This document shows, in pieces, positions 1-17,517 of a stretch of 64,000 nucleotides of DNA. Each line of letters opens with the position of its first letter. Within the stretch, counting starts at the first letter, position 1. The notes beneath the pieces were generated by a model. It made no database searches. It saw nothing but the letters and a program-made list of their open reading frames with translations, and was not told where the DNA came from. The position numbers were made by a program, and so were the translations under genes. Source of the stretch: Planctomycetota bacterium (GTDB taxonomy: Bacteria > Planctomycetota > SZUA-567 > H5-PLA8); assembly GCA_045863855.1 (NCBI GenBank), contig BTVV01000009.1:30398-94397 (forward strand), read 5' to 3'.

Positions 1-3000
1 AACGCGGACGCGCTGGAAGTGGGCGACGGCGGGACGGCGATTTTCTGGTCGGATCTGGGGACGTGGTTTTACGGTTCGCTGAGCGCCAAGGGCGGTGCGT
101 CCGGCGGCGACGGCGGCTTCGCGGAAATCAGCGGCAAGGCCTTCCTGCGCATGGCTGGCTCGGCGGATCTGAGCGCCGCCAACGGTAGTTTAGGAACGTT
201 GCTGTTGGACCCGACGGATATCGAGATTCAGAACGGTTCCAGTGACGGGGACGACACGGGAGCATCCGCCACGGACTTTTCGAACAACTTTCCGGGCGGC
301 GCTCCGGCGACGAGCGTGATCTTCGAGTCTGAACTGGAAGGCCTAGCGGAAAACGCGAACGTCACGATTCAGGCCACCAACAGCGTGATCCTGAAAGATC
401 TGACGACGGATGGGGTGCTGGAACTGGCGCTCGCCTCAGGTTCGCTGACGATTGATGCGGGAACCTCGTTCACGTTTGAAGATACCACTAACACCATCCG
501 CACGAACGGCGGCGACCTGATTGTCACCGCCGCTTCGGCGACGCTGGGCGTGCTGGACACAACCGGTTCGACGGGGACTGCGACGGGCGGAAATATCTCC
601 GTCACGACCTCGGGCACCATCACGCTGCATCAGAATCTGACGACGCTCGACGGCAATATCACCCTTGCCGGGGCGGTATCGTTGCAGACCGACCTCACCC
701 TGAACACCGGCGACGGGAATGCCTCGATCACCGGCGCGCTCGACGGCAACGCGAACACTCTCACGGTGGTTTCGGGCGCGGGAACGGTGACCTTTGGCAG
801 CGCGCTGAGCGACCTGGACACACTCGACGTGACTGGCGGGACGATCTCGCTGGGCGGAAACGTGACCACGACGGGCACGCAGGACTACCACGGCGATGTG
901 GAGATCGCTGGCGCGAGCGTGACGCTCACGACCACCGATAGCACCGTGACCTTCGACGGCGCGATTGAAGGCGATACCGATGGCGGCCAGGCGCTTACGG
1001 TAAGCGTCGGCAACGGCGACATCGTGCTCTCAGGCGACGTGGGCGCGACCAACGCGTTGGCCTCGCTGAACCTGACCAGCACCAGCACGACCATCGAAAT
1101 CGGCGGGAACGTCACCACGGCCGGCGCGCAAGTGTACGACGGACACGTGCTGATTACCGGCGGCGACGTGACGCTCACCGGTGTGGGCATTCAGTTCACC
1201 GGCGACGTGGACGGTTCGGGCACCGAGAACTTGACGGTGGATGCGACGACGGGGACGGCCGATTTCCAGGGTGCGGTAGGCCTTCTCAATAACTTCGAGG
1301 CCTCCGGCGCGGCGATCCTCTTCGCCGGCGACGTGACCACCGACGGGACGCAGACTTACACCGGCGCCGTTGAACTTTTCGGTGACCGGACCTTCACGGC
1401 CTCCGACGCTGACATCACCTTCGACGGCGCGGTTTCGGGCAATACCGCGGCCGAAAACCTGACCGTGGACGCGGGGACCGGCGCAGTGGACTTCACCGGC
1501 GCGTTGACCGACTTGGCCTCCTTGGACGCCACCGGCACGACCATCGGCGTGGGCGCGAACGTGACGACGAGCGGAGCGCAGGACTACCACGGCGACGTTT
1601 CCGTCAACGGCACGGCGACGCTCTCGGGCACGGACTTGACCTTCGAAGGCACGGTGACAGGCTCCGGCGGACCAGACCTGACCGTTTCCGGCACAGGGAC
1701 GGTGGACTTCCAGGACGAGGTGAGCGCGCTCAACAGCCTCGCCGCCACCGGCACGACGATCCAGATCGCCGCGGACGTGAGCACCACGGCTTCGCAGAGC
1801 TACACCGGCGACGTGATTCTATTCGGCGACCTGACGCTTAACGCGGTTGGAGTGACCTTTTCGGCGACCGTTACGGGCAACGCGACCAGCGAAGTCCTGA
1901 CGATCGCTTCGACAGGCGGCACGGTGGACTTCGGCGGGGAAGTCAGCGACTTGGGCAGCCTGGACGTAACGGCCGACTCCATCGAGTTCGCCGCGAACGT
2001 GACGACGACCAACGCACAGACGTACACGGGCGACGTGGCCCTAAATGGCGATATCTTGTTCACCACCACCGATCACGACGTGACCTTCGACGGCGCGGTC
2101 ACCGGCGGCGGGAACGACCTGACCGTCGCGGCCGGCGCAGGCGACGTGATCGTCACGGGCGCGGTCTCCGGCGTGGGGGCGCTCGATCTGACCGGCGCCA
2201 CGATCGAGTTAGGCGGCGATGTCACGACCACCGGCGCGCAGACCTACCAAGGCAATGTGCAGATCAACGAAAGCCTTACGCTCACGGGCGCCGGCCTCAC
2301 GTTCGAGGGCACCGTCGCCGGCGGCGACGGCGATGAAGACCTCACTGTGGACGCCGGCGCGACCACGGCCGATTTCCAGGACGCGGTAAGCAAACTTTCC
2401 AGCTTCGACGTTACCGGTGCGGCGATTCAGTTGGCCACCGACGTGACGACGACCGGGCTGCAGAGCTACGACGGTGCGGTCACGATTTTTAGCTCGCTTA
2501 CGCTGACGGCAGGCGACGTGACCTTCGTGAGTACCGTGGAAGGCGACACGGGTGCGGAGAGCCTGACGATCGATGCAACTGGCGGGACGGCGGATTTCGG
2601 TTCCACGGTGGATTCGATCGATGTGCTCGATGTGACGGGAGCCACGATCCGGTTCGCTGCAGACGTTACGACCGAAGGCGCGCAGACGTTCACCGGCGAC
2701 GTGGAACTGACGGGGAGCGTGCTCTTCACGACCAGCAACGACGGCGTGACCTTCGACGGGAACGTGGACGGCGGCACGAACGACCTGACGGTGGACGCGG
2801 GTACGGCGGCGGTGGAGATCGCGGGGAACGTCACGGACGTCGGGACGCTCGACTTGACCGGAACCACCATCGAATTGGGTGGGGACGTCACGACCACCGT
2901 ATCGCAGACCTACCGGGGCAACGTGGTGGTCAACGCGAGCCTCACGCTGACCGGCGCGGGAATCTTGTTCGAAGGCACGGTCGCCGGCGGCGTGGGAACC

Positions 3001-6000
3001 GAAGACCTGACGGTGGACGCCACGACGGGCACGGCCGATTTCCAGGACGCCGTCAGCAGCCTGAACAACTTCGACGCGTCCGGCGTGGATATCTTCCTGG
3101 CCACGGACGTGACGACTACCGGCACGCAGGATTACGACGGCTCGGTGAGGCTCTACGGGGACGTGATCCTGACGGGCAGCGGCGTGGCCTTCTCCGGAAT
3201 CGTGGAAGGCGACCTCGGCTCTGAAAATCTGACTGTGGACGCCACGGGCGGCACGGCCGACTTCGGCGGCGACCTCAGCAGCCTGGCCAGCCTTGACGTG
3301 ACGGCGAACACGATTCTGCTCGGCGCGGACGTAACCACCACCGGAGCGCAGGACTACAACGGCGCCGTCGAATTGCAGGCCAACGTGGCACTCACCACCA
3401 GCACAGCCGGCGACGTGACCTTTGCCGACACGGTGGACGGTTCTGGCGCGGGCGGTCAGAACCTGACCTTGGACGTGGCCGGCGCCATCGACTTCCAGGG
3501 GGCAATCGGCTCCTCGGTGCGCTTGGGCGCTATCCAAGTGGACGATGCCACCGACCTCTCGCTGTTGGGCCTGACGGCGGGCAGCTTCACGCAGGTCGCC
3601 GGCACGGGCACGACGACCTTCGACGGCGCCGTGGATCTGGATGCGGCGGGCGGGCTGAACGTTGCGACGGACACCATCCTTGTCAACGGCACCGTGGACA
3701 CGGTGAACGGCGGCGGCGTGACGCTGACGGCGGCCAGCGCGCTGACGATCGATGCAGCGGCTGTGATGAACCTGGACGGCGCGTTCCTAGAGAACGGCGC
3801 CGGGACGGTGAACGCGGCGGGCAGCATCACCACCAGCAACGCGGATGTGACCTTCACCAACATCGTGACGCTGGACGGAGATCTGGCTGTGACGAGCGGC
3901 GGGGGCCAGATCGAATTCCTGGGCGGCGCGGTGGGATCGACCGACGGCGGGGAGTCGCTGACGCTGGACGCGGGCTCGGGCGGGTTCACCTTCGGGGGCG
4001 ATTTGGGAGCGGCGGGGGCGGCGTTGAACGACCTGACGCTGACCTCGGACCAGCTCTTTACGCAGGACGTTGATATTGTCGCGGCGGGAACGGTGCTTTT
4101 GCAGACCGCCGGCGCGACGCAGAACGCCGGATTCACGGTTCAGGCCGATACGCTGCTGCTTGAGGGGACGGGCGACTTTACGCTGAATGGGGCAAACGAT
4201 GTTTCGAGCTTCGGCACCAGTGGCACAGGTGTGGCCGGCGACATCGTTTTCAACAACGGTACGACGAACCTTACTACGCTGGCGATCGACACGACGGGTA
4301 CGGGCAACCTGACGCTGCGCCACGACGGGACGCTGGACTTGATGGGCGCGGTGAGCCTGACGGGTTCGTTCGTCGAAGAAAACGCGGCAGGTACCGGCGC
4401 GGGTGGGCTGGTGACGCTGGCGCAGGACTTAAACGTCGCGGCCGGCGAGGACATCACCTTCAAGAGTGCGTTGGCGATCGACGGGACGGTGGAGATCTCG
4501 ACGTCGGGCGCGGGCAACTTGAACTTCTTCACCATCGACGGTGCGACGGTCGATACGGATTCGATCACGCTGACGGTGGACACGGGCTCCATTACGTATA
4601 CCGGCGGACTGGGCGGCGGGACGCGCTTCGACAACATCACGCTGAACACGGGTGCGGGGATCACGATCGATCAAGATTTGAGCGCGGCGACGCAGGTAAC
4701 GATCAACGCGGGCGGGAACATCGATCATTCGGACGGAACGATCTCCGCCGACACGGTCACGCTCACCACGACGGCCGGCGGTGCGACGCAGTCGGGTACG
4801 GCGAGCATCGATGCGACGACGCTGCTGGTGGAAGGCACGGGCAACTTCACGCTGAACAACGCGAACAGCGTGGACGAGTTCGGCACCAGTGGCGCAGGCG
4901 TGGCCGGCGACATCGTCTTCAACAACGGTACGACGAACCTTACTACGCTGGCGATCGACACGACAGGTACGGGCAACCTGACGCTGCGCCACGACGGGAC
5001 GCTGGACTTGATGGGCGCGGTGAGCCTGACGGGTTCGTTCGTCGAAGAAAACGCGGCAGGTACCGGCGCGGGTGGGCTGGTGACGCTGGCGCAGGACTTA
5101 AACGTCGCGGCCGGCGAGGACATCACCTTCAAGAGTGCGTTGGCGATCGACGGGACGGTGGAGATCTCGACGTCGGGCGCGGGCAACTTGAACTTCTTCA
5201 CCATCGACGGTGCGACGGTCGATGCGGATTCGGTAACGCTTACGCTGGGCACGGGCACGCTGGCCCTGGGTGGTGCGATCGGCGGCGGCACGCGGCTCGA
5301 CAACGTAACCTTCAACTCGGGCGCAGGTATCACCCTGAACCAGAACGTGACCGCGGCGACGCAAGTGGACGTGAGCGCGGCCGGAGCCATCGCGCAGACG
5401 GCTGGAACGATCTCCGCCGACACGGTCACGCTCACCACGTCGGCCGGCGGCGCGACGCAGTCGGGTACGGCGAGCATCGATGCGACGACGCTGCTGGTGG
5501 AAGGCACGGGCAACTTCACGCTGAACAACGCGAACAGCGTGGACGAGTTCGGCACCAGTGGCGCAGGCGTGGCCGGCGACATCGTCTTCAACAACGGCAA
5601 TACGGCGCTAACGACCTTGGCGATCGACACCACAGGCTCGGGCAACCTGACGCTGCGACACGACGGAACCTTGGACCTGTCCGACACGATCACGCTGACG
5701 GGTTCGTTCGTCGAAGAAAACGCGGCAGGTACCGGCGCGGGTGGATTGGTGACGCTGGCGCAGGATCTGAGCGTCGCGGCGAACCAGAATATTACCTTCA
5801 AGAGCGCCCTTGAAGTTTCCGGAGACCGATCGATTTCGACCTCGGGTACGGGGAACTTGAGCTTCTTCACGATCGACGGAAGCACGGCCGATACGGACGC
5901 GATCACGCTCACCGTGGATACCGGCTCGATTACCTACTCCGGCGCCATTGGCGGCGCCACCCGCTTCGACGCGATTACGCTGAATACGGGCGCGGGGATC

Positions 6001-9000
6001 ACGCTAGGCCAGGACCTGGACGCGGCGTCGCTGATCGAGATCAACGCGGCGGGGACGATCTCGCACACGGGCGGGTCGCTCTCGGCCGCTACGGTGCATC
6101 TGAACACGACCGCCGGCGGCGTCTCGCAGGCCGTTGGCAGCGGTGGGATCGCGGCGACGATCTTGACGCTCGAAGGGACCGGGAATTTCTCCCTGCTCGA
6201 CGCGGACAACGCGGTGGGCACGCTTGAAACCAACGGCGCGCTGGCCGGGGACTTGACCTTCGTGACCGGCTCGACGGTGACGACCGGCGACATTACCGCA
6301 GACGCCGTGGCCGTCGAACACACCGGGGCGCTGACGCTGGGCGGGGACATCACCGCGGACTCGTTCGTCGAATCGAACGTCGGGAATACGGGCGGCAGCG
6401 CCGGCGGCGTCAACACGCTCGCCGGAGCCGAACGGACGATCGATACGAGCGGCGCGGGCGGGGCCATCACCTTCAAGAGCAACGCGACGCTGAACAGCGA
6501 CCTGACGCTGAACGCAGGGGCCAGCGGCGGAACGATCACGCTGGCGAACGTGAATGACTCGGTGGCCGGCGCCGATACGCTCGACCTGACCGGCGGCGGG
6601 TTCGCCTTCGGCACGCTGGGGACGCCGAACCGCCTGGGCGAGATCGCGCTCACCACCAACCAAGCCGGTGGCATCACGGTGACAGGTACGGGCCTGAACG
6701 CCGATCGTATCACCTTCGAAAACACCGGCGGCAACCTGACGGTCGGGTCGGCTCTGACGGCCGACGAGATCACCCTGACGGCCAACGGGATGCTCGCGGT
6801 GAACGGTCTGCTCACGGCGCTCGACGGCGGCGCGGGCCTGGTGACGCTGAGCGGCACTGGGATCACGCAGACGGCGGGCATCCGCACCGATACGCTGGAA
6901 CTGGACGGCACGGGCAGCGTGGTGCTGAATTCGGCGGCGAACCAGATCGAGGCGCTGACCGCCCTCTCGAACACTCTGGACGATGTTCAGGTGACGACGA
7001 ACCCGGCGAGCGGAACGTTTACCTTGGGCGCGTTCGATACGACGGGCGCGGCCGGGACCGGCGACCTGACGGTTAACTTCGGCAGCGACAATCTGCTGAT
7101 CAACGGTCCCGTGGATCTTAAAGGTTCGTTCTCGACGGGCGCCTCGAGCGGCGGGATCACGTTGGCCGGCGACCTTACGGTGGGTAACAGCATCACCTTC
7201 ACCGGAACGCTGGGCGTCTCGGGTGTGGCGTCGTTGACCAGCGGAGCCGGCGGCGGGATCACGCTGGGCGATGTGACAGGCGCGGGCGCGGACTTGACCC
7301 TGACCGCGGGCAGCCTGGGGATCGATTTCAACGGCAACGTGGGCACCTCGGGCGGGCGCTTGAACAGCCTGACGCTGAACACCGACGGACCGGTGACGCA
7401 GGACGCCGGCGAAAAGCTTCACGCCAATACCTTGACGCTTCTGGGCGATGCGATGTACGCGCTGCGCACGAATATCCTTACGCTCGACGGCGGCGGCGCG
7501 ACGCTGGGCGGCTCGCTGTCGCTGGCCAACGACGGCGCATTGGCCGTGGACGTGAATCCGCTGACGGTCGCGGGTGACGTGACCCTGCGCACGTTGGCCG
7601 GCGCGATTACGATCAACGAAGACGTCAGTTCCACCGGCGCGGGCGGAACGGTAACTCTGGATGCGGCCGGCGGCGCCACGACGACCGGCGGATCGACGGT
7701 GAGCGCGGACAATCTGCTGCTGTCCGGAGGCGGAACGTTCGACCTGGCTACCTCGGTAGACACGGTGGCCTCGACCAACTTGGGCGCGGGTTCGGTCACG
7801 CTCGTAAACGACCAGACGCTGGCCGTGGGCGACGTCGGCGCGGGGTCGGGTTTGACGGCCGGGGGCGGGATCGACCTGACCGTCACGGCCGGAGACCTGA
7901 CGCTTAACCGCGGGCTGAGCGCGGGGACGGGCGATGTGAGCCTCGACTGGGGCGGCACGCTGGCGCAGAACGCGGGGACGATTGCCGGCGGCACGCTGAC
8001 GCTGGCCGGGGACAGCAACGCGGGCCTTGCGCTGGCGCTCAACGTGAGCGAGATCGCGGGAACGGTGACGGGTTCGAGCACGCTGGCACTGAACAATGCC
8101 GGTGTGCTGACCTTCACGGGCTTCGACGCGGATACGAATTCCCTGCGCGTAAACGCGGGAGGGGCGAACGGAGACTTGAGCGCCGCCGATCTGCTGCTCA
8201 CGGGCACTGGAATTTTCAATCTCGACACAACGGTCGGCACGCTGGCGGCGAACGTGACTGGCGCGCTGACGATCGACGAAACCGACGGACTGATCGTGGG
8301 CACCGTCAACGGCGAGAACGGTGTGCAGACCGCGGGCGGGAACGACATCAGCCTGACGGCCGGCGGAGCGCTGATCCTGAACCAGCAAGTGAATGCCGGC
8401 GCGGCGGGGGATGTGACGCTGGACTTCGCGACGCTGGGCGGCGCGGCGTTGGTGACCGGCAACGTGCTGGACCTGGCCGGAGCGAGTGGGTTCACGCTGA
8501 CGACGGACGTAAACGTGCTGCAGGGTACGCTGACGGGCGCGGCGGCGACGACCGTGAACAATACCGGCGCGCTGAACCTGAACGGGTTCGATGCAAGTGG
8601 GATTTCGCTGCGCCTTTCGGCCGACGGCGCCACGGGCAGCGTGACGTCGAACGAACTGCAACTTAACGGCACGGGAGTCTTCAACCTCACGACGACGGTG
8701 AACACGCTGGCGGCCAATGTGACGGGCGCGCTGAGCGTGGACGACACCGACGGGCTGACCGTGGGCACCGTGGGCGCGGTTACGGGCGTGAACAGCAACG
8801 GCAGCGCGGTGACGCTGGGCACGAACGGCGCGGGGGTCCTGGCGTTGAACCAGGATGTGACGGCTGCCGGTGCGACGGTCATCCTCGATGCAGCCGGCGA
8901 CGTGACTTCAGGTGGCGGCACCGTAACGGCCCAGACGCTGGACTTGCGCAGCGGCGGCGCCGCGACGGTGGACGCGAACGTAACGGTCCTGCGCGGGTTC

Positions 9001-10821
9001 TCGAACGGAAACTTGGACCTTACCAACGCGGGCCATTTGAACCTGAACAACTTCAACGCGGCAGGCGTCGATTTCCTCCTGACGGCGGCGGGCGCGGACG
9101 GAACGGTGAGCGCCGGCGGCTTGGCGATTTTCGGCACGGGGGCTTTCGCTCTGACCTCGACGCTGGACCGCCTGGCGGGGAATGTCAACGGAGCGGTGAC
9201 AATCACCGATGCGGGCACGCTGACGATCGGGACGGTGGGCGCGCAGAACGGGCTGATCAGCACCGGGGGAGATATCCGGCTGACGGCTCCGGGCGGCCTT
9301 AACTTGGCGCAGGACCTGCGCGCGGCGGGCTTCGAGATTCACCTGCAAGGGAATGGCGCGCTGCAGACGGGCGGAACGCTGGAGGCCGACCGGCTGCGGC
9401 TGGCCGGACCGGGTGCGTTTACGCTGACAGGCGCGACGAACGACGTGAATGTCCTGGCGGCGCAGACCAACAGCGCTCTTTCTTTTACCGATGTGGATAA
9501 CCTGACCATCGGCGCGGTCGGCGTGACGGTGGGGATCGATACGAGCGGAAATAACCTGACGCTGTCGACCGGCGGCATGCTGATCTTGGCGCAGGAAGTC
9601 CGCGCGGGCTTGGCCACGACCACCTTTAATGTGGCGGCGGGCGGCGTAAACCAAGTTCCAGGCGCCCGCATCATGTCCGACCGCTTGCTGCTGACGGGCG
9701 CCGGCGCTTTCAATCTTCTGGAAGGCGGCAACCTGATCCGCACCCTGGCCGGCAACCTGACCGGCGGCGGGGCTTCGACGCTGAACTTTCGCACGGCGGG
9801 TAACCTGTTCATCGGGACGGTCGGCGTTCAGAACGGGATCCTGACCACGGGCGGCTCGGTCACGCTGGCCGCGCCGGGCGGATTTATCCAGGTAGATCGT
9901 CCAATCAATACGGGCGCCGGTCCGCCCGGTACGGCGACGCTGACGGGCGATATTCGCCCCGCGAATCCGATGCTCGCGGGATCGGGCGACATCACGCTCA
10001 CGGCCCAGATTCTGCCGGGGGGCGGCGCGGGGAATACGACGACCTTCCAGTTGAACCCTTCGATTCCGATGGGACCGCAGGACGGCGGCTTTACGCTGCC
10101 GGACCTCGGGAACGTAAACATCGGGATCGATACGTTCGACGATCCGGACGGGTTGGGTGCGGGCGGCGATCTTGGGACGAACGGCGACGACCTTCAGATC
10201 ACGCTGCCGGAAGAGTTGCTCAAAGCGTTCAATACGGTGCTCTCGGTGACTTCGACGACGGGCTTCGAAGACGAAGGCCTGCGCAATTCGCTGGACGAGT
10301 TCCAGGCATCGGAGCAGGCGCTGACGCTGGCGCAGCAGGTGCTCGACCACGCGGCCAAAGTGCTGCGTTCGCTGCAGCCGGGCGACCCACTGCGCGAGGC
10401 GCTGCAGAAGCTGATCGACGAAGTGAACGCGGCCTCGCAGGAAGTGCGGAAATCGAACGTGGCGCTGGCCGAGTTGATCGCGAAGTTGTACGCGGACGGC
10501 CGTCCGGATCGCGTGGGCAAGGATGCGCTGGAAGGCGCGCTGAAGGGCATGCAGCGCGCAAACGAGCGGCTGCTCGTCACGTCGCGGGCGCTGGAAGCGG
10601 CATTGAAGGCGATTCAGCAGCCGGCGGGCGCTCCGGCGGCCCCGGCGGATCGAGCGGTGCTTGAAGTGGCGGCTCAGCGCGCGCGGGAGCAGGCCACTCG
10701 CGAGGCGGCGGATGCGCGCGACCGGCAGGACCGCGTGGGCCAGGACGCGAAGTTTGCGACCCTGGAAGAATACAAGGCGCAGGAAAAAGGGCGCAAGCCG
10801 GAAGGTACCGACGGGAAATAG
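1..10821 (+). CDS. Giant filamentous haemagglutinin-like TpsA exoprotein (type Vb secretion substrate), 5'-truncated by the window edge
   Basis: Frame is open from base 1 (NADALEVGDGG...). It carries the extended TPS/haemagglutinin N-terminal signature GDGGTAIFWSD...GGDGGFAEISGK...GTLLLDPxDIxI, then G/T/D/A/V-rich beta-helix-type repeats and a helical C-terminal tail. A TpsB gene lies downstream. Confidence 0.9.
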   Translation, partial: NADALEVGDGGTAIFWSDLGTWFYGSLSAKGGASGGDGGFAEISGKAFLRMAGSADLSAANGSLGTLLLDPTDIEIQNGSSDGDDTGASATDFSNNFPGGAPATSVIFESELEGLAENANVTIQATNSVILKDLTTDGVLELALASGSLTIDAGTSFTFEDTTNTIRTNGGDLIVTAASATLGVLDTTGSTGTATGGNISVTTSGTITLHQNLTTLDGNITLAGAVSLQTDLTLNTGDGNASITGALDGNANTLTVVSGAGTVTFGSALSDLDTLDVTGGTISLGGNVTTTGTQDYHGDVEIAGASVTLTTTDSTVTFDGAIEGDTDGGQALTVSVGNGDIVLSGDVGATNALASLNLTSTSTTIEIGGNVTTAGAQVYDGHVLITGGDVTLTGVGIQFTGDVDGSGTENLTVDATTGTADFQGAVGLLNNFEASGAAILFAGDVTTDGTQTYTGAVELFGDRTFTASDADITFDGAVSGNTAAENLTVDAGTGAVDFTGALTDLASLDATGTTIGVGANVTTSGAQDYHGDVSVNGTATLSGTDLTFEGTVTGSGGPDLTVSGTGTVDFQDEVSALNSLAATGTTIQIAADVSTTASQSYTGDVILFGDLTLNAVGVTFSATVTGNATSEVLTIASTGGTVDFGGEVSDLGSLDVTADSIEFAANVTTTNAQTYTGDVALNGDILFTTTDHDVTFDGAVTGGGNDLTVAAGAGDVIVTGAVSGVGALDLTGATIELGGDVTTTGAQTYQGNVQINESLTLTGAGLTFEGTVAGGDGDEDLTVDAGATTADFQDAVSKLSSFDVTGAAIQLATDVTTTGLQSYDGAVTIFSSLTLTAGDVTFVSTVEGDTGAESLTIDATGGTADFGSTVDSIDVLDVTGATIRFAADVTTEGAQTFTGDVELTGSVLFTTSNDGVTFDGNVDGGTNDLTVDAGTAAVEIAGNVTDVGTLDLTGTTIELGGDVTTTVSQTYRGNVVVNASLTLTGAGILFEGTVAGGVGTEDLTVDATTGTADFQDAVSSLNNFDASGVDIFLATDVTTTGTQDYDGSVRLYGDVILTGSGVAFSGIVEGDLGSENLTVDATGGTADFGGDLSSLASLDVTANTILLGADVTTTGAQDYNGAVELQANVALTTSTAGDVTFADTVDGSGAGGQNLTLDVAGAIDFQGAIGSSVRLGAIQVDDATDLSLLGLTAGSFTQVAGTGTTTFDGAVDLDAAGGLNVATDTILVNGTVDTVNGGGVTLTAASALTIDAAAVMNLDGAFLENGAGTVNAAGSITTSNADVTFTNIVTLDGDLAVTSGGGQIEFLGGAVGSTDGGESLTLDAGSGGFTFGGDLGAAGAALNDLTLTSDQLFTQDVDIVAAGTVLLQTAGATQNAGFTVQADTLLLEGTGDFTLNGANDVSSFGTSGTGVAGDIVFNNGTTNLTTLAIDTTGTGNLTLRHDGTLDLMGAVSLTGSFVEENAAGTGAGGLVTLAQDLNVAAGEDITFKSALAIDGTVEISTSGAGNLNFFTIDGATVDTDSITLTVDTGSITYTGGLGGGTRFDNITLNTGAGITIDQDLSAATQVTINAGGNIDHSDGTISADTVTLTTTAGGATQSGTASIDATTLLVEGTGNFTLNNANSVDEFGTSGAGVAGDIVFNNGTTNLTTLAIDTTGTGNLTLRHDGTLDLMGAVSLTGSFVEENAAGTGAGGLVTLAQDLNVAAGEDITFKSALAIDGTVEISTSGAGNLNFFTIDGATVDADSVTLTLGTGTLALGGAIGGGTRLDNVTFNSGAGITLNQNVTAATQVDVSAAGAIAQTAGTISADTVTLTTSAGGATQSGTASIDATTLLVEGTGNFTLNNANSVDEFGTSGAGVAGDIVFNNGNTALTTLAIDTTGSGNLTLRHDGTLDLSDTITLTGSFVEENAAGTGAGGLVTLAQDLSVAANQNITFKSALEVSGDRSISTSGTGNLSFFTIDGSTADTDAITLTVDTGSITYSGAIGGATRFDAITLNTGAGITLGQDLDAASLIEINAAGTISHTGGSLSAATVHLNTTAGGVSQAVGSGGIAATILTLEGTGNFSLLDADNAVGTLETNGALAGDLTFVTGSTVTTGDITADAVAVEHTGALTLGGDITADSFVESNVGNTGGSAGGVNTLAGAERTIDTSGAGGAITFKSNATLNSDLTLNAGASGGTITLANVNDSVAGADTLDLTGGGFAFGTLGTPNRLGEIALTTNQAGGITVTGTGLNADRITFENTGGNLTVGSALTADEITLTANGMLAVNGLLTALDGGAGLVTLSGTGITQTAGIRTDTLELDGTGSVVLNSAANQIEALTALSNTLDDVQVTTNPASGTFTLGAFDTTGAAGTGDLTVNFGSDNLLINGPVDLKGSFSTGASSGGITLAGDLTVGNSITFTGTLGVSGVASLTSGAGGGITLGDVTGAGADLTLTAGSLGIDFNGNVGTSGGRLNSLTLNTDGPVTQDAGEKLHANTLTLLGDAMYALRTNILTLDGGGATLGGSLSLANDGALAVDVNPLTVAGDVTLRTLAGAITINEDVSSTGAGGTVTLDAAGGATTTGGSTVSADNLLLSGGGTFDLATSVDTVASTNLGAGSVTLVNDQTLAVGDVGAGSGLTAGGGIDLTVTAGDLTLNRGLSAGTGDVSLDWGGTLAQNAGTIAGGTLTLAGDSNAGLALALNVSEIAGTVTGSSTLALNNAGVLTFTGFDADTNSLRVNAGGANGDLSAADLLLTGTGIFNLDTTVGTLAANVTGALTIDETDGLIVGTVNGENGVQTAGGNDISLTAGGALILNQQVNAGAAGDVTLDFATLGGAALVTGNVLDLAGASGFTLTTDVNVLQGTLTGAAATTVNNTGALNLNGFDASGISLRLSADGATGSVTSNELQLNGTGVFNLTTTVNTLAANVTGALSVDDTDGLTVGTVGAVTGVNSNGSAVTLGTNGAGVLALNQDVTAAGATVILDAAGDVTSGGGTVTAQTLDLRSGGAATVDANVTVLRGFSNGNLDLTNAGHLNLNNFNAAGVDFLLTAAGADGTVSAGGLAIFGTGAFALTSTLDRLAGNVNGAVTITDAGTLTIGTVGAQNGLISTGGDIRLTAPGGLNLAQDLRAAGFEIHLQGNGALQTGGTLEADRLRLAGPGAFTLTGATNDVNVLAAQTNSALSFTDVDNLTIGAVGVTVGIDTSGNNLTLSTGGMLILAQEVRAGLATTTFNVAAGGVNQVPGARIMSDRLLLTGAGAFNLLEGGNLIRTLAGNLTGGGASTLNFRTAGNLFIGTVGVQNGILTTGGSVTLAAPGGFIQVDRPINTGAGPPGTATLTGDIRPANPMLAGSGDITLTAQILPGGGAGNTTTFQLNPSIPMGPQDGGFTLPDLGNVNIGIDTFDDPDGLGAGGDLGTNGDDLQITLPEELLKAFNTVLSVTSTTGFEDEGLRNSLDEFQASEQALTLAQQVLDHAAKVLRSLQPGDPLREALQKLIDEVNAASQEVRKSNVALAELIAKLYADGRPDRVGKDALEGALKGMQRANERLLVTSRALEAALKAIQQPAGAPAAPADRAVLEVAAQRAREQATREAADARDRQDRVGQDAKFATLEEYKAQEKGRKPEGTDGK
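859..3370 (+). repeat. Twelve intragenic ~74-aa repeats with motif [ND]V[TS]TxxxQx[YF]xGxV
   Basis: Motif starts at 859, 1108, 1330, 1558, 1774, 1996, 2218, 2440, 2662, 2884, 3106 and 3328. The period is exactly 222 bp from 1774 onward. Confidence 0.9.
4210..6200 (+). repeat. Three tandem 669-bp (223-aa) intragenic repeat units with near-identical DNA blocks
   Basis: ttcggcaccagtggc occurs at 4210, 4879 and 5548. Block 4210-4553 is near-identical to 4879-5222, and 4735-4928 to 5404-5597. The right boundary is approximate. Confidence 0.92.
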
Positions 10822-10824
10822 CCC

Positions 10825-13800
10825 ATGAGCGAAAACGAGACACCTAAAAAAGAAGACGCCGAGCCGGACGTGGTCCTGCCCTCCGAACAGTCGGAGGAGG
10901 AGCTGAAAACTCTGCTTCAGGAAGTGTGGCGCAATACGATCGCGCCGCACGAAATGAACAAAGTTCCGCTGAAGTCGGATCAGCTCAAGTCGGACGTGAC
11001 CATCGTGACGGCGCAAGCGTTGCCGCAAGGAGCCGTGGCGGCGACGGTGATGGGGAACGGCACCAGCAGCGTCCCGAAGGCGAATCCGCGAACGGTCTTC
11101 TCGCTGCCGGAGACGCAGACGGTCATCGGCTCGACCGGATCGCGGCTGGGCGTGACGGGCACCAAAACACAGATCGACGATCCCGGTGCGAAGGCCATCG
11201 AGACAGCCGCGACCCTGATGGGGCCGCAGGGCACCAAGTCCCCGAACAAGACGCCGACCCAGACGGCCCGGGGCACCGTAACCTCCCGCGGATCGGTGAC
11301 GGCGCGCGGTACGACGACGACGCGCAGCACCAGCGCCAAAGCCCTGCTCCAAGCGGCCAAGAAGCTGGCGTCGATCTCCGTTTCTCGCCTGATCGTGCAG
11401 GAAAAGAGCGTTGTCGATAAGCCCGTGGAAGCGCAGCCGCTGGATTTGGACCCGGAAGCCGGCGTAGCGGATTTCGAGATCGAGCGGGTGCTGGGTGAAG
11501 GCGGCATGGGCGTGGTGTACATCGCGCGGCAGACGGCCATCGACCGCGAAATCGCGCTCAAGATGATCAAGCCGAAGATGTCGCAGAACCCGGATATCCA
11601 GGCCGTCTTCCTGGCTGAAGCGGCAGTAACGGGCGACCTGGAACATCCGAACATCGTACCGATCTACGATCTGGGTGTGACGAGCGACGGAGTGCTGTTC
11701 TACGCGATGAAGCACGCGAAGGGCGTGCCGTGGAAGAATGTGCTCACCCAGCGCGCGCAGCAGGACAACATCGAGATTTTAATGAAGGTGGCCGACGCGG
11801 TGGCATTCGCGCACGCGAAGGGCATCATTCACCGCGATTTGAAGCCCGAAAATATCATGTTGGGCGAGTTCGGCGAAGTTCTGGTAATGGACTGGGGTCT
11901 GGCGGCCTGCGTGAAGGACGGCGGAAAAATCGGCCGGCTCACGCCGGACAACGCGGCGGGCGGCACGCCTGCGTACATGGCGCCCGAGATGGCCACGGGC
12001 AACGTGGAACTGATTGGCTACGTCAGCGACGTGTACCTGCTGGGCGCGATCCTGTACGAGATCGTTGCGGGCGTACGCCCGCACGCCGGCAAAGACATGA
12101 TGGATCTCCTGTTCAACATCGCGACGAACAAGATCCAGCGGACGGACAAGAAGGGCGAACTGATCGATATCGCCTTGAAGGCCATGGCCGCGAAGCCGGA
12201 GGACCGCTACCCCAACGTCAAGGCCTTCCAAGATGCGATCCGCTCGACGCAGAAGCACTTCGAAAGCATCGCGCTTTCGGATAGCAGCCAGGAGCGGCTG
12301 AATAAGGCGCTGAAAACAAAAGAGTACGAAGACTTCGCGCAGGCGCTCTTCGGTTTCGAAGAAGCGTTACAGATGTGGAAGTCGAACAAGGCCGCCAAAC
12401 AAGGCGCACTGGATACGCGGTTGTATTACGCGAAGGCGGCAGTGGAGAAGGAAGACCTGGACTTGGCGGCTTCGCTGATCGAGCCTGCGAAGGATAAGTT
12501 CGGGAGCTTCCTCAACGAGATTAAGTCCCGCATGCGCTCGCGAGATGCGCGGCGCTTCCGGCTGCGCGCGCTGACCTACGGTTCGGCGGGCCTGGCGGCG
12601 CTCTTCCTGGTGGGCGTGACGGTGGCGTACTTCCTGGTCTCCGACGAGCGCGACCGCGCGGAGGTGGCGCGGCAGAACGCAGAACTGGCCAAGAAAGCCG
12701 AAGAACAGCAACGCCAGGAAGCCGAGAATCAGCGTGCCGAAGCGGTGCGAAGCAAGGAACAGGCGGAAGATGCGCGCGTGCGCGCCGAGACGGCGCGCAA
12801 GGAAGCCGTTTCGCAGCGCGAGCGCGCGGAGAAGGCGCTCACCGATCTGGCCCAGGAGAAGAGCAAGGTAGAAGAAGCCTACTCCAAACTGGAGAAGCAG
12901 GCTCGAGAATTGATCGAAGCTCAGCAGGCCGAGTTGGAGGCGAAGAAAAAGACGGAACTGGCGGAACTTTTGAAGAGCGAGGCTCAGAAAAAGGCGGACG
13001 AAGCGCAGGCGGAAGCCGCACGCACGGGCATGCTGATCAAGGCCTCGGAAGACTGGATCTTCGACGGCGCCGATGCCCAGAAACGCCAAGCCGCAGCGGC
13101 GGCCAAACTTGGGAAGCCGGCGCAGATGGACCTGGACCTTCCCAAAGCCGCGAAGCTGCGCATGGTGCTGGTGCCCGAAGGCGTTTTCGTCATGGGCAGT
13201 CCCGCCAAGGAGTCTTCGCGCGCGGCAGAAGAGTACCTGCATCAGGTCATGCTGCCGCAGGCGTTTTGGCTGAGCGCGACGGAAGTAACCCGCGCGCAGT
13301 GGGAAGCGCTGACGGGTCAACCCGCGCCGGCCATGAGCGAAGGCGGGGATCTGCCGGACCTCCCGGTGGTGAACGTGAGCTACAATGACATCTCAAGTCT
13401 GCTGCTTCCGAAATTGCAGCCGCTCGCGCCGGAAGGCTACGTTTTCCGTCTGCCGACGGAAGCGGAGTGGGAGTGGGCGTGCCGCGCGGGAACCAATACC
13501 GCGTATGCCGTGGGCGACGACGAAGCGGCCCTGCGTGATGCGGCGTGGTTCCGGCTGAATAGCCGCGGCGCTCCGCACCCGGTGGCGCAACGCCGCGCCA
13601 ATCCGTGGGGTCTGTTCGATCTTCACGGAAATGTCTCGGAACTCTGTCACGACGCTTACGACCCGAATTACTACCTGACCGGAGCGAAAGAGGCTCCGAT
13701 GAACGTAGACAACGAGAAATTTAAAGTGGTGCGCGGCGGTTCGTGGGTGAACCTGCCGCAGCACTGCCGGTCGGCGTACCGCAGTTACGCGCACCCGGAC

Positions 13801-13866
13801 AATCGCTACGACCATTTGGGGCTGCGCGTTGCGCTGGCTCCGAAGGCCGCGAGCGGCGGACGCTAA
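10825..13866 (+). CDS. Membrane-anchored Hanks-type Ser/Thr protein kinase with coiled-coil stalk and C-terminal FGE-sulfatase (SUMF1/EgtB/PvdO-like) domain
   Basis: Kinase motifs GEGGMGVVY, IALK, HRDLKPEN, VMDWGLA and GTPAYMAPE. TM helix ALTYGSAGLAALFLVGVTVAYFLV. Long E/A/K/Q-rich coiled coil. FGE motifs FVMGS, RLPTEAEWEWACRAG, NPWGLFDLHGNVSE, RGGSW and GLRV. Confidence 0.93.
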   Translation: MSENETPKKEDAEPDVVLPSEQSEEELKTLLQEVWRNTIAPHEMNKVPLKSDQLKSDVTIVTAQALPQGAVAATVMGNGTSSVPKANPRTVFSLPETQTVIGSTGSRLGVTGTKTQIDDPGAKAIETAATLMGPQGTKSPNKTPTQTARGTVTSRGSVTARGTTTTRSTSAKALLQAAKKLASISVSRLIVQEKSVVDKPVEAQPLDLDPEAGVADFEIERVLGEGGMGVVYIARQTAIDREIALKMIKPKMSQNPDIQAVFLAEAAVTGDLEHPNIVPIYDLGVTSDGVLFYAMKHAKGVPWKNVLTQRAQQDNIEILMKVADAVAFAHAKGIIHRDLKPENIMLGEFGEVLVMDWGLAACVKDGGKIGRLTPDNAAGGTPAYMAPEMATGNVELIGYVSDVYLLGAILYEIVAGVRPHAGKDMMDLLFNIATNKIQRTDKKGELIDIALKAMAAKPEDRYPNVKAFQDAIRSTQKHFESIALSDSSQERLNKALKTKEYEDFAQALFGFEEALQMWKSNKAAKQGALDTRLYYAKAAVEKEDLDLAASLIEPAKDKFGSFLNEIKSRMRSRDARRFRLRALTYGSAGLAALFLVGVTVAYFLVSDERDRAEVARQNAELAKKAEEQQRQEAENQRAEAVRSKEQAEDARVRAETARKEAVSQRERAEKALTDLAQEKSKVEEAYSKLEKQARELIEAQQAELEAKKKTELAELLKSEAQKKADEAQAEAARTGMLIKASEDWIFDGADAQKRQAAAAAKLGKPAQMDLDLPKAAKLRMVLVPEGVFVMGSPAKESSRAAEEYLHQVMLPQAFWLSATEVTRAQWEALTGQPAPAMSEGGDLPDLPVVNVSYNDISSLLLPKLQPLAPEGYVFRLPTEAEWEWACRAGTNTAYAVGDDEAALRDAAWFRLNSRGAPHPVAQRRANPWGLFDLHGNVSELCHDAYDPNYYLTGAKEAPMNVDNEKFKVVRGGSWVNLPQHCRSAYRSYAHPDNRYDHLGLRVALAPKAASGGR

Positions 13867-13992
13867 GCGGTAAAGGACCGACCGATAAGGCTTTGCCAGG
13901 TCATGGACCGCCGTAGTACGGCTGGGAAAAGCGCCGGGAAACCGGGCGCATGGAGCGTTGTTTTCCGCATGGGCAGCCTCGTGCCTAATCGC

Positions 13993-15732
13993 ATGCACGT
14001 CGTCGCGTGGCTGCTGGCCCTCGGCCTGAGCGGGCTGAGCGTCGCGCACGGCGTGGAGGACGAGCGGCGCAAGCCCAAAGAGCCCGAGAAGCCCGCTGCT
14101 CCGGACGTGGAAATCAAAAAGCCGGAACCCGAACAGACCGAAGCCGAGAAGAATAAGGACGCCGAGAAGACCCTCGTCGAAGCGCTGATCGGGCTTCGTC
14201 TCGTGGGCCGCACCGAAGACGTGATTCCCAAAGACGCGAAAGTTTCGGGCATCGATACCTCCAGCGTGCCGATGCTGGAGTCCGATGAGTTGCACGAAAA
14301 GCTTTCGGAATTTGTGGGCAAGCCGATCTCGCTGAAGGCGATTCGCGGCATGGCGAGGGAAGTGATTCTCCATTGCCGGGCGCACGACCGGCCCTTCGTC
14401 AATATCTCGGTCCCCGAACAGGACATCACGGGCGGCGTGGTGCAGCTCCTGGTGGTGGAAGCGAAGGTGGGCGAAGTGCGCGTGGAAGGGAACCGCTTCT
14501 GGCGCACTGCCCAATACCGCAATGGAGTCACCCTTCAGCCCGGCGATTCGGTGAGCGAGCAGAAGCTGATCGAGGAGTTGAACTATTTCAACGAAAACGC
14601 CTTCCGCCAGGTAAAGCCGATCTTCAAGCCGGGCAAAGAGCCGAATACGACGGATTTGGTCCTAAAAGCCGAGGAGCGCTTTCCGGTGCGCTTCTACGGA
14701 GGCTACGAAGATACGGGAACGCAGAGCACCGGCTTGGATCGAATGCTGGTTGGATTCAACTGGGGCAATGCGTTCATGCACGGCCACGAGATCGGATACC
14801 AGTTCGCGGCGGACATCGACGTGGAGCGGCTCCTGAGCCACAGCGGGTACTGGCGCATTCCGCTTCCGAATAAGCACTCGCTGGCGTTTTCGGGCGGCTA
14901 TTCGACCATTCAGGCGCCCCTCAATGCGGACATCGATAACGGCGGGTTCAACTGGCAGGCCAGTATGCGCTACATCGCGCCGTTGCCCAAACTGGGGCGC
15001 TACCGGCATGAAGTGCAGATTGGATTCGATTTCAAGCAGACGAACAACAATCTGGACTTCGGCGGTGAAGCGATCTTCGATTCGACCATCGATATCGCGC
15101 AGTTCGCGCTTCAGTACAGTGGAAGCTATCCGGATGCTTGGGGCCGCACGAGTTTTTCGGTGGGCGGCTACGCGAGCCCCGGGCACTTGACGAGCCGGAA
15201 CACATCGCACGAGTATAACGTCGCGCGGCCAGGCACCGATCCTCAGTACGCATACGGCGAGTTGAGTTTCGAACGAGCGTGGCGATTGCCGAAAGAAATC
15301 CTCCTGGTGCAGCGCTTTCATGGGCAACTGGCGACGGGACGCATGCAGAGTACGGAACAGTATTTGGCAGGCGGATACAACTCGGTGCGTGGATACGACG
15401 ATCGCTTGGTCTCCGGCGATCAGGGCTTCGTGGCAAACGTGGAACTGCGCTCGCCGAATTTTCTCCTGGGTACCGTGAACGGAGATCCGCAGTACGAGAA
15501 CCGCCTGCAGTTCATTGCCTTTTACGATTTTGGCCGCGTGCATAACCACGGGCGTTTGATTGGCGAAGCGAAGCGGACGGATCTGGAAAGCGTCGGCGCG
15601 GGTTTGCGTTACCGCCTCGGCAACCACGTGAACGTTCGGTTCGATTACGGCCGGCAACTCAGGCGGATCGACGGCAATACCGAAGGCGGCGACCACGGAC
15701 GCGTGCACTTGGGCGTGGTAGTCAGCTATTGA
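13993..15732 (+). CDS. TpsB / ShlB-FhaC-HecB family outer-membrane secretion protein (POTRA + Omp85 beta-barrel)
   Basis: Signal peptide MHVVAWLLALGLSGLSVAHG (start could be upstream at 13903, 13969 or 13981). POTRA-like VPEQDITGGVVQLLVVEAKVGEVRVEGNR. Conserved loop-6 motif GGYNSVRGY, FYDFG, and a C-terminal aromatic residue. Confidence 0.92.
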   Translation: MHVVAWLLALGLSGLSVAHGVEDERRKPKEPEKPAAPDVEIKKPEPEQTEAEKNKDAEKTLVEALIGLRLVGRTEDVIPKDAKVSGIDTSSVPMLESDELHEKLSEFVGKPISLKAIRGMAREVILHCRAHDRPFVNISVPEQDITGGVVQLLVVEAKVGEVRVEGNRFWRTAQYRNGVTLQPGDSVSEQKLIEELNYFNENAFRQVKPIFKPGKEPNTTDLVLKAEERFPVRFYGGYEDTGTQSTGLDRMLVGFNWGNAFMHGHEIGYQFAADIDVERLLSHSGYWRIPLPNKHSLAFSGGYSTIQAPLNADIDNGGFNWQASMRYIAPLPKLGRYRHEVQIGFDFKQTNNNLDFGGEAIFDSTIDIAQFALQYSGSYPDAWGRTSFSVGGYASPGHLTSRNTSHEYNVARPGTDPQYAYGELSFERAWRLPKEILLVQRFHGQLATGRMQSTEQYLAGGYNSVRGYDDRLVSGDQGFVANVELRSPNFLLGTVNGDPQYENRLQFIAFYDFGRVHNHGRLIGEAKRTDLESVGAGLRYRLGNHVNVRFDYGRQLRRIDGNTEGGDHGRVHLGVVVSY

Positions 15733-15823
15733 TTCCGTTGACGGCCTTGAATTTCGGTCGCTTTCGAAAGAGACTGTAAAGAGGTTTGGCCGCGCGTCAC
15801 GCAAGGCGTCAGGAGTTGGTTTC

Positions 15824-17479
15824 ATGACGTCCCCACCTGCCGGCTCTAATGACATCGCAGGCAAGACGCTGAAGCCGGGCATGGCCACCATTCGCGTGCT
15901 GGCTGAGATCCAACTGGAGCGCGGCCAGCCGCTTTCGGCGGACGACTTACAAGCCATCCCCATTTTCGAAGGAATTCCGCTGGCGCAGCTTGCTCGGCTG
16001 CCGGGCTCGGTGGTGCGGCGGCAATTCAAAGCGGGCGAAGTAATCTGCCGCGAAGGCGAGTACGGGTCGACCGCGTTTTACATGCTAGACGGCCAAGTGG
16101 AGGTCTCGCTGCAGTCGCCGCTGGCGCACGTGGCGAGCCGGAAGGCGGAAACCAAGCGCGGCGGATTCTTCGGCCTGCTTCGGGATTTTACGCACCGGCT
16201 GGCCAGCGGGAAGGAAGACCCGCGGCCCCACGCGGCGAACGAGCAGCGTTATATTCCCATCGACGGATCGGTCGACCTGCCCATGAACAAGCCCATCGCG
16301 ACGATGGCCGCGGGCGACCTGTTCGGCGAGATGACGTGCCTCAATTTCAATCCGCGTTCGGCGACGGTCAAGGCATTGAGCGATTGCACGACGCTGGAGA
16401 TGCTGCGCAATGTCCTGCAGGTGTTGCAGAAGAACCCCAAGTTCAAGCAGAGGCTGGAACGCAACTACCGGGATCGCGCACTGGGCCAGCATTTGCGTAG
16501 CGTCCCGATTCTGGCGGGTCTTGAAGACAAGTTCATTGACCAGTTGCGCGAGCGCGTGGAGTTGGTCTCGTACGAGCCGGGCAAGGTGATCTGCAAGCAG
16601 GATGAGCCGGCCGATGCGTTCTACCTGATTCGAGTCGGCTGCGTGAAGGTAAGCCAGGAGCATCCCGGCGGTGAACTGGTGCTGGCGTACTTGAGCCGCG
16701 GCGAATTCTTCGGAGAGATGGGACTGTTGCAGGGCGGAAAGCGCAACGCGACGGTCTCCGCGCTGGACCACGTGGAGCTGGTCCGCATCCGTATGGCAGA
16801 CTTTCGATTTATGCTGAGCTGGTACGACGACCTAAAGGAGAAGTTCGAGCAGGTGTACGAACAGCGCTCGAAGTCGATGCAGCGCGCGCAGCAGGTGGCC
16901 TCCCGTATTCCGCTGAACGATTTTCTCTCGCAAGGCCTGATGCAGGCGCAGAGTCTGCTCCTGCTGGACTTGGAACGCTGCACGCGCTGCGACGAATGCG
17001 TGCGCGCATGCGCGGACAGCCACGACGGCGTTACGCGGCTGGTGCGGGAGGGCCTGCGCTTCGATAAGTTTCTGGTCGCGACCTCGTGCCGAAGCTGCCT
17101 CGACCCCGTTTGCATGATTGGCTGCCCGGTAGGTAGCATCCGCCGCAAGGAAAACCTGGAAGTGGTGATCGAAGATTGGTGCATCGGCTGCGAGAAGTGC
17201 GTGCAGCAGTGCCCCTATGGAAATATCGCCATCCATGAGTTTCCGGCCAAGGCCGGGGCCGCGCCGGAGGGTGGGGCGCAGGACGAGAGTGCCGAAGCGC
17301 CGGCGGCAGAGGTAAAGAAAGCCGCCATGGAAAAGAAGGCGGTGACGTGCGATCTGTGCACCGACCTTCGCGAGCCCAGTTGCGTGTATGCGTGTCCGCA
17401 CGACGCCGCGCATCGCGTGGACGCCAAGCGCTTCTTCGAAACGGGCTTGGCGAAGAAATCCAAAGTTTCGCCGCCTTGA
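15824..17479 (+). CDS. Tandem cyclic-nucleotide-binding domains fused to a multi-[4Fe-4S] ferredoxin (DmsB/NrfC-like) domain
   Basis: Two cNMP signatures (GDLFGEM...RSATV; GEFFGEMGLL...RNATV) and four Cys clusters: CTRCDECVRAC, CRSCLDPVCMIGCP, CIGCEKCVQQCP and CDLC...CVYACP. Confidence 0.88.
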   Translation: MTSPPAGSNDIAGKTLKPGMATIRVLAEIQLERGQPLSADDLQAIPIFEGIPLAQLARLPGSVVRRQFKAGEVICREGEYGSTAFYMLDGQVEVSLQSPLAHVASRKAETKRGGFFGLLRDFTHRLASGKEDPRPHAANEQRYIPIDGSVDLPMNKPIATMAAGDLFGEMTCLNFNPRSATVKALSDCTTLEMLRNVLQVLQKNPKFKQRLERNYRDRALGQHLRSVPILAGLEDKFIDQLRERVELVSYEPGKVICKQDEPADAFYLIRVGCVKVSQEHPGGELVLAYLSRGEFFGEMGLLQGGKRNATVSALDHVELVRIRMADFRFMLSWYDDLKEKFEQVYEQRSKSMQRAQQVASRIPLNDFLSQGLMQAQSLLLLDLERCTRCDECVRACADSHDGVTRLVREGLRFDKFLVATSCRSCLDPVCMIGCPVGSIRRKENLEVVIEDWCIGCEKCVQQCPYGNIAIHEFPAKAGAAPEGGAQDESAEAPAAEVKKAAMEKKAVTCDLCTDLREPSCVYACPHDAAHRVDAKRFFETGLAKKSKVSPP

Positions 17480-17517
17480 CCGTACCCGCCGCGCGGATAA
17501 GGACGAGCCGGTCCGCA

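Follow-up and report, generated by a model that had tools for sequence, protein, structure and literature searches.

Results

A receptor-like kinase is encoded between tpsA and tpsB

The window analyzed here is a 64,000-nucleotide stretch of a Planctomycetota genome (G000:C9:30398-94397, with G000 the label of the source genome, which is 94% complete). It begins within a two-partner secretion (TPS) locus in which the gene for a receptor-like Ser/Thr kinase lies between tpsA, the gene for a giant surface protein, and its partner gene tpsB. The C-terminal helical domain of TpsA and this kinase form a conserved unit that relatives also keep beside a different export system. Four open reading frames (ORFs) follow one another on the + strand: the 3' part of tpsA (1..10821, 5'-open in the window), the Hanks-type kinase (10825..13866, 1013 aa), tpsB (13903..15732, two POTRA domains and a ShlB barrel) and a cNMP2/Fe-S protein (15824..17479, cNMP_binding and Fer4). 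The gap is 3 bp between tpsA and the kinase gene and 36 bp between the kinase gene and tpsB. The initial annotation of the window had given this order, strand and 3-bp gap for tpsA, kinase and tpsB, and the ORFs were confirmed at those places. It had also put TpsA at more than 3600 aa; the complete gene (G000:C9:29387-41218) starts 1011 bp upstream of the window and encodes 3943 aa. No sigma-70 promoter or + strand terminator was predicted in 10000-18000, which is uninformative for co-transcription. Contigs from RNA runs came only from relatives at ~92-97% identity; one covers the tpsA-kinase junction, with strand and transcription unreadable from contigs and DNA possibly present.

TpsA consists, in order, of a signal peptide, a TPS domain, a beta-rich passenger, a linker and a helical tail, and contains no cysteine. 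The N-terminus is hydrophobic and signal-peptide-like, and the TPS domain matches PF05860 (E 6e-26), with TIGR01901 also above cut-off. TpsB, the product of the sole tpsB found in G000, has POTRA_2, POTRA and ShlB domains. By these secretion features, a signal peptide and TPS domain in one partner and two POTRA domains and a ShlB barrel in the other, the locus is a true TPS (type Vb) system. The passenger includes three near-tandem copies of a 669-nt (223-aa) repeat (4210..6129, + strand). The tpsA open frame of G002 is 231 aa longer, which would fit one extra 669-nt copy. An AlphaFold 2 model of the TpsA C-terminus (506 aa, window 9301-10818) has confident short beta-strands in the last 235 passenger residues. 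A linker of ~70 residues (10009..10218, + strand) leads from the last beta-rich turns to the tail; it is modeled with low confidence (pLDDT, the model's local confidence score, <50 at residues 237-306) and is predicted to be disordered. A fold search with the 506-aa model, dominated by the helical tail, gave no match. The tpsA of G001 (L012:216-12742) is read as two ORFs of 3766 and 402 aa in different frames with the break just before the tail, either an assembly error or a real split.

The kinase domain (11473..12234, + strand; Pkinase match at residues 217-435) has an intact Gly-loop, catalytic Lys, HRDLKPEN, DWG and APE motifs. Sequence comparison identified the adjoining cytoplasmic juxtamembrane region (12235..12582, + strand) as clade-specific, and membership of other kinases in this clade was judged by its alignment (A4). 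A single transmembrane (TM) helix follows (12583..12639, + strand; residues 587-605) with basic residues on its N-terminal side and a predicted N-in/C-out topology. Beyond it are a coiled-coil-like stalk of ~130-140 aa (12640..13059, + strand), recognized by sequence pattern only, and a domain with the fold of formylglycine-generating enzyme (FGE; 13060..13833, + strand; FGE-sulfatase match at residues 779-1003). The initial annotation had described the protein as a cytoplasmic kinase joined by a TM helix and coiled coil to an FGE domain outside the cytoplasm, and motifs, domain matches and predicted topology agree with that description. The catalytic motif of formylglycine-generating enzyme is an active-site cysteine pair after RGGS. 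This pair is missing from the window kinase, which reads RGGSWVNLPQHC versus RGGSFLCTDQYC in the C105 paralogue, and the FGE-fold domain is predicted to be non-catalytic. Its best match in the PDB is the Treponema variable protein TvpA (2y3c). A diversity-generating retroelement (DGR) target was considered and rejected: a search of the 94% complete G000 with the 3' end of the FGE region returned only the self match and no template repeat differing at adenines. The kinase-TM-FGE architecture alone is unremarkable, since G000 has 85 kinase-domain matches genome-wide and a second kinase-TM-FGE protein of another type (C63:29340-32534, 1064-aa frame) away from the TPS locus.

TpsA ends in a helical domain

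The helical C-tail noted in the initial annotation was recovered by AlphaFold modeling and profile searches as a discrete, all-helical domain of ~190 aa (10204..10788, + strand) behind the flexible linker. The model has five helices with a three-helix core and a pLDDT of 84. The tail has no specific Pfam match and no toxin-domain match, and Foldseek returned nothing at E<=0.001. Among the families listed by VIA, the best matches (Z up to 12.4) were generic helical bundles within the background of helical proteins. A word-indexed protein search with the tail alignment found nothing, which is weak evidence; a HMMER search of a library of 1.84 billion proteins with the tail profile gave 72. These comprise 5 TPS-domain proteins, 38 DUF4347 proteins and 29 with neither, the latter mostly fragments and ~3 of them likely false. 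In the long library proteins the match sits near the C-terminus. Pairwise identity among tails is 11-51%. [quoted passage not shown] Across a 401-genome sample of the phylum (7 candidates per genome scored) the tail occurs only in the host class; an E 7e-5 match outside it was discarded as a short unrelated protein of 389 aa. One library cluster labeled Phycisphaerae bears the tail. Weak in-register matches to divergent tails in G041 and G052 (E about 0.01) were excluded from the counts, and the G048:C2 tail (prob 80, E 1.4e-5) was included in the trees. By these searches the tail is a previously undescribed putative domain.

The kinase accompanies tpsB in related genomes

The initial annotation had called for a neighborhood search, and this was carried out in all 62 genomes of the class examined (tallies include the unpublished genome G017). 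The order sel1-tpsA-kinase-tpsB also occurs in two genomes of the same genus (G001, G002) and two of another genus (G004, G012), and its retention in these four relatives places it beyond chance. Two genomes of another family have the order tpsB, FHA-GAF-HD-GYP gene, clade kinase, FHA-kinase gene; tpsA is divergent and upstream in G037 and on a separate contig in G057. A tpsB gene is present in 9 of the 62 genomes and has a clade kinase within 12 kb in seven, the remaining two being on contigs of 3-4 kb. Neither clade kinase nor tail was found at the tpsB loci of other classes (15 loci in 11 genomes, 3 candidates per genome scored). The clade kinase is spread much wider than tpsB: 32 of the 62 genomes contain strong matches (E<1e-20), 45 in all, and the surroundings of 39 of these were examined.

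Tail and kinase are kept beside a second export system

In genomes that lack tpsB, a profile built solely from the five TpsA tails matched proteins of DUF4347 type adjoining the kinase (E 1e-15, 4e-12 and 6e-8). The matches are the C-termini of proteins otherwise unrelated to TpsA, which carry DUF4347 and cadherin-like domains behind a LEPR-XLL-like start. The export genes at these loci encode OEP (TolC), HlyD, a HlyD that begins with a GAF-like part and Peptidase_M50-HlyD. Three other cargo loci (L164, L165, L166) combine DUF4347 proteins and TolC/HlyD/M50 genes with different C-termini, and the last residues of the L165 cargo resemble a variable C-terminal extension.

Of the 32 genomes that contain a strong clade kinase, 18 carry the tail; of the 30 that do not, 2 carry it. 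Kinship makes these genomes non-independent. FGE-type clade kinases have TPS, TolC/membrane fusion protein/M50, DUF4347 or tail neighbors at 22 of 32 loci, the window included. Same-clade kinases whose ectodomain is of another kind (by eye, TPR- or LRR-like) have such neighbors at 0 of 5 informative loci, and two more are on contigs <5 kb. G023, G025 and G047 each contain two export loci, one carrying tail and kinase and the other a DUF4347 locus with neither (second-locus cargo without tail, hhalign E 0.6-0.7). This indicates that the export system functions with no tail present and that the kinase goes with the tail. The association holds through convergent, divergent and tandem gene orders and two export systems, across families. 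Outside the genome set, 4 of 30 library tail proteins agree exactly in contig size and source with a member of a set of 26 clade kinases; this is indirect evidence, and a rough simulation gave p 0.0007 for two such coincidences by chance. A single clade was rejected both for the TPS-linked kinases (approximately unbiased (AU) test, p 1.4e-4, on a 21-row subset with a simpler model after inspection of a 35-row tree) and for the TPS tails (AU p 2.6e-4, long branches flagged). TPS linkage is thus polyphyletic in both trees, and the TPS pairing arose or was kept at least two times.

These results identify tail plus kinase as the conserved unit, not TPS itself, and the pair is portable between the type Vb route and the TolC/HlyD/M50 route. 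The initial annotation had taken the TPS system as the defining unit, which does not hold for relatives without tpsB. The link between tail and kinase is stronger than that annotation could tell, since it persists when one export system is replaced by another.

Neighboring genes

A gene for an FHA-GAF-HD-GYP protein adjoins the kinase locus in five genomes (G037, G057, G025, G027, G030), and FHA-kinase genes do so in three. The G000 homologue of the FHA-GAF-HD-GYP protein (27-28% identity) is on C3, unlinked. A GAF-adenylate/guanylate cyclase gene lies at the distal end of two export loci that carry the kinase (L073:18244-19899, Pfam-confirmed, and L066:18273-19901) and would be an alternative second-messenger output.

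A 12-repeat Sel1 protein (L001:16634-18208) is encoded upstream of tpsA in 5 of 5 TPS loci of family f1 and is a possible periplasmic chaperone or fourth component. The cNMP/Fe-S gene had been counted as part of the system in the initial annotation; it was dropped as a module member because G000 and its near twin G002 are the only genomes in which it comes after tpsB. A paralogue with 62% identity (G000:C14:67547-69850) carries an extra N-terminal Cys-rich, ferredoxin-like region. In a Lentisphaerales metagenome-assembled genome (L027:5109-11473), a TpsB barrel is fused to the end of a coiled-coil-like sequence of 880 aa or more and is encoded upstream of tpsA. The coiled-coil-like part probably exceeds 1500 aa across an N gap and has a hydrophobic N-terminal segment; this TpsB may be tethered to the inner membrane.

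Discussion

A candidate adhesin-coupled receptor kinase

Export of TpsA proteins begins with the N-terminus, and several of them retain a C-terminal anchor in the periplasm (PMC5422565). From established TPS biology, TpsA would cross the inner membrane via Sec and thread N-terminus first through TpsB. Its linker would then occupy the pore and the folded tail would be held in the periplasm as a plug, as the anatomy and the precedent of CdrA, HMW1 and FhaB suggest; a plug role fits the tail because the folded bundle lies behind a long linker. By its predicted topology, the kinase would present its non-catalytic FGE-fold domain in the periplasm on the coiled-coil stalk. The TpsA tail has to pass through Sec, and the linkage goes with the ectodomain and not with the cytoplasmic part that the kinases have in common; for these reasons the periplasm is the most likely meeting place of the two. 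There the FGE end may bind the tail, and display, release, clustering or load of the adhesin would alter dimerization and autophosphorylation of the kinase. To judge from the neighboring genes of relatives, unlinked in G000, phosphothreonine would recruit FHA proteins such as the FHA-GAF-HD-GYP cyclic di-GMP (c-di-GMP) phosphodiesterase and the FHA-kinase. A tail that remains in the periplasm and makes contact with the FGE ectodomain of a kinase that signals to FHA proteins, the FHA-GAF-HD-GYP enzyme among them, is put at an even chance. On this reading the cell would monitor its own adhesin from within the envelope. The anatomy and co-occurrence of the parts are observed, and the reading of the locus as an adhesin-coupled receptor-kinase module is equally balanced between acceptance and doubt.

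Several observations weigh against tail and kinase acting as ligand and receptor. For nine of the 26 tail matches, the surrounding 12 kb contain no clade kinase (17 of 26 are linked); four of the nine are contig-limited, and those in G029, G025, G058, G036 and G048:C110 are not, the first three being second copies in genomes with a linked locus elsewhere. Twelve of the 17 linked tails were seeds, and the non-seeds are linked in 5 of 14 cases (four close kin of seeds and one new genus). The tail occurs without any kinase match in G036 and G009 (88% and 91% complete, >600 contigs each). The metagenome locus L143 has tail and export genes and no kinase in 20 kb, stopping at the M50 gene behind which the kinase often sits; the metagenome scan gave three tail loci, two of them short, and none with a kinase. 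Ten of the 32 FGE-kinase loci, several on short contigs, have no export or tail neighbor, and no FHA gene is beside the window locus. Stalk length among relatives ranges over 58-276 aa (27 of 29 loci measured), which argues against contact at a fixed distance. In favor of the pairing, tail and FGE identities covary (rho 0.79 over 15 loci, 0.74 over 10); congruent trees are to be expected from linkage alone, which could also produce this covariation.

The unlinked tails (9 of 26, and L143) would suit a functional linkage without direct binding, in which the tail is a periplasmic retention plug or protease target only and the kinase senses another cue, such as a glycan or envelope damage, through a lectin-like FGE domain and controls adhesin expression or release inside-out by c-di-GMP. 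This Lap/CdrA logic has a precedent in the periplasmic C-tail of CdrA, cleaved by LapG under c-di-GMP control (PMC5422565), and fits the HD-GYP, GAF-cyclase and FHA-kinase neighbors. Against it, tail-free export loci are also kinase-free in three genomes, so that the kinase goes with the tail and not with the export system, and no LapG/LapD-like gene was noticed in the loci, no genome-wide search having been made. It is a possible explanation, held with clear doubt. A role in kin recognition, with the tail cleaved and delivered or displayed to the periplasm of a neighbor, read by the cognate kinase and bound by FGE as an immunity-type domain, is improbable. The gene order does resemble that of Burkholderia bcpAIB, the kinase taking the position of the immunity gene (PMC5422565), the tails diverge fast (11-51% identity), and a title cited in PMC13713981 describes FGE-like proteins as type VI secretion system (T6SS) immunity proteins. 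The tail is nevertheless one conserved family and not a set of polymorphic cassettes, and VENN/ELYN, orphan tails in G000 and toxin-domain matches are all absent.

Chance also has its argument: among ~85 kinase genes, with an unlinked kinase-TM-FGE gene on C63, one could have come to lie beside an adhesin and been co-inherited, and tpsB loci outside f1/g19 lack clade kinase and tail (the 15 loci of the 11 other-class genomes; the 3.7-kb contig of G043 is uninformative). Such hitch-hiking is very unlikely in view of a link that persists over families, rearranged orders and two export systems and is specific to FGE-bearing members of the clade. Least probable is a CDI system with the tail as toxin and the kinase as immunity protein. 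The kinase does lie directly behind tpsA; an intact 1013-aa membrane kinase is unlike the small CdiI, the tail has no pre-toxin motif and it is found on non-TPS cargo as well. Membership in the CdiBAI/BcpAIB group was rejected, there being no pre-toxin motif, no polymorphic toxin and no small immunity gene behind tpsA.

The initial annotation proposed that the two-partner operon and its kinase form a candidate contact-sensing signaling system. The proposal is borne out in part, by synteny, topology, the intact kinase and the tail, and the parts concerning the cNMP/Fe-S gene and TPS as the unit fall away. The module is real, apparently undescribed and mainly confined to one Planctomycetota class, and its mechanism is proposed here by inference. 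Neither the tail nor its pairing with a kinase is described in the literature searched, most subscription journals and supplements being outside the search; within the same scope no paper was found on DUF4347, kinase and Planctomycetota together, nor on two-partner secretion, threonine kinase and formylglycine. Because the C-terminal tail is common to both routes, there is a hint that in the uncharacterized TolC/HlyD/M50 route, as in TPS, DUF4347 cargo leaves with its N-terminus first and is retained. More speculatively, the tail on any giant surface protein exported N-terminus first, whether TpsA or DUF4347 cargo, might act in the periplasm as the ligand for a matching FGE receptor kinase, so that surface or cell engagement leads to threonine phosphorylation and a change in c-di-GMP. 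Such a portable outside-in adhesion-signaling cassette, a tentative idea, would be a bacterial analogue of integrin-type signaling. How bacteria sense the engagement of an adhesin with a surface is an open question, the tail systems of CdrA and LapA signaling inside-out. The module supplies a candidate ligand (the 190-aa domain), a receptor and an output that are testable in vitro without culturing the organism.

Comparison with known systems

The locus shares with Burkholderia bcpAIB, a system of CDI and contact-dependent signaling, the arrangement of tpsA, small gap, partner gene and tpsB. It differs in having a conserved tail in place of a polymorphic one and a 1013-aa kinase as the partner, and in lacking VENN/ELYN. 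Fusions of kinase and FGE domains occur in Planctomycetota, some as DGR targets. The window kinase has the same domain architecture; unlike these fusions, its clade is tied to export loci and no DGR template repeat for its FGE 3' end was found in G000. With the module, one of the phylum's many orphan kinase-FGE proteins acquires a defined partner.

CdrA and LapA are large adhesins with a periplasmic tail tied to c-di-GMP (PMC5422565; PMC11898600). The CdrA/CdrB-LapG and LapA/LapD/LapG systems resemble the present one in coupling a large adhesin to a periplasmic tail, here proposed. They signal inside-out through a protease, whereas TpsA has a folded helical domain and a kinase partner; retention of the CdrA/LapG type was rejected, as the C-terminal cysteine hook is absent from a protein with 0 Cys. 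The TolC/HlyD/GAF-HlyD/Peptidase_M50 locus, related to type I secretion, has been described by comparative genomics (Kamneva et al. 2015, PMC4452313). Its OEP, HlyD, GAF-like-HlyD and M50-HlyD genes correspond to the export locus that replaces TPS in relatives. The word kinase appears 0 times in the main text of that paper, whose supplementary neighborhood figures may show kinases, and DUF4347 cargo and the tail are not described in the part covered.

The closest parallel for the kinase is in Pseudomonas aeruginosa, where the FGE domain of TagR is modeled to bind and dimerize PpkA, and PpkA phosphorylates Fha1 (PMC13713981). TagQ/TagR-PpkA-Fha1 and the present system, by its predicted topology and the FHA neighbors of relatives, both couple a periplasmic FGE-fold domain to an inner-membrane Hanks kinase with an FHA-domain output. 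No separate TagR, TagQ, TagS/T, PppA or T6SS genes were seen in the locus maps, T6SS not having been searched genome-wide. Here the FGE domain is instead fused to the kinase on a coiled-coil stalk, and an adhesin tail would be the input. The roles of TagR and PpkA look fused in the window kinase, which would work in a similar way without being a member of that pathway.

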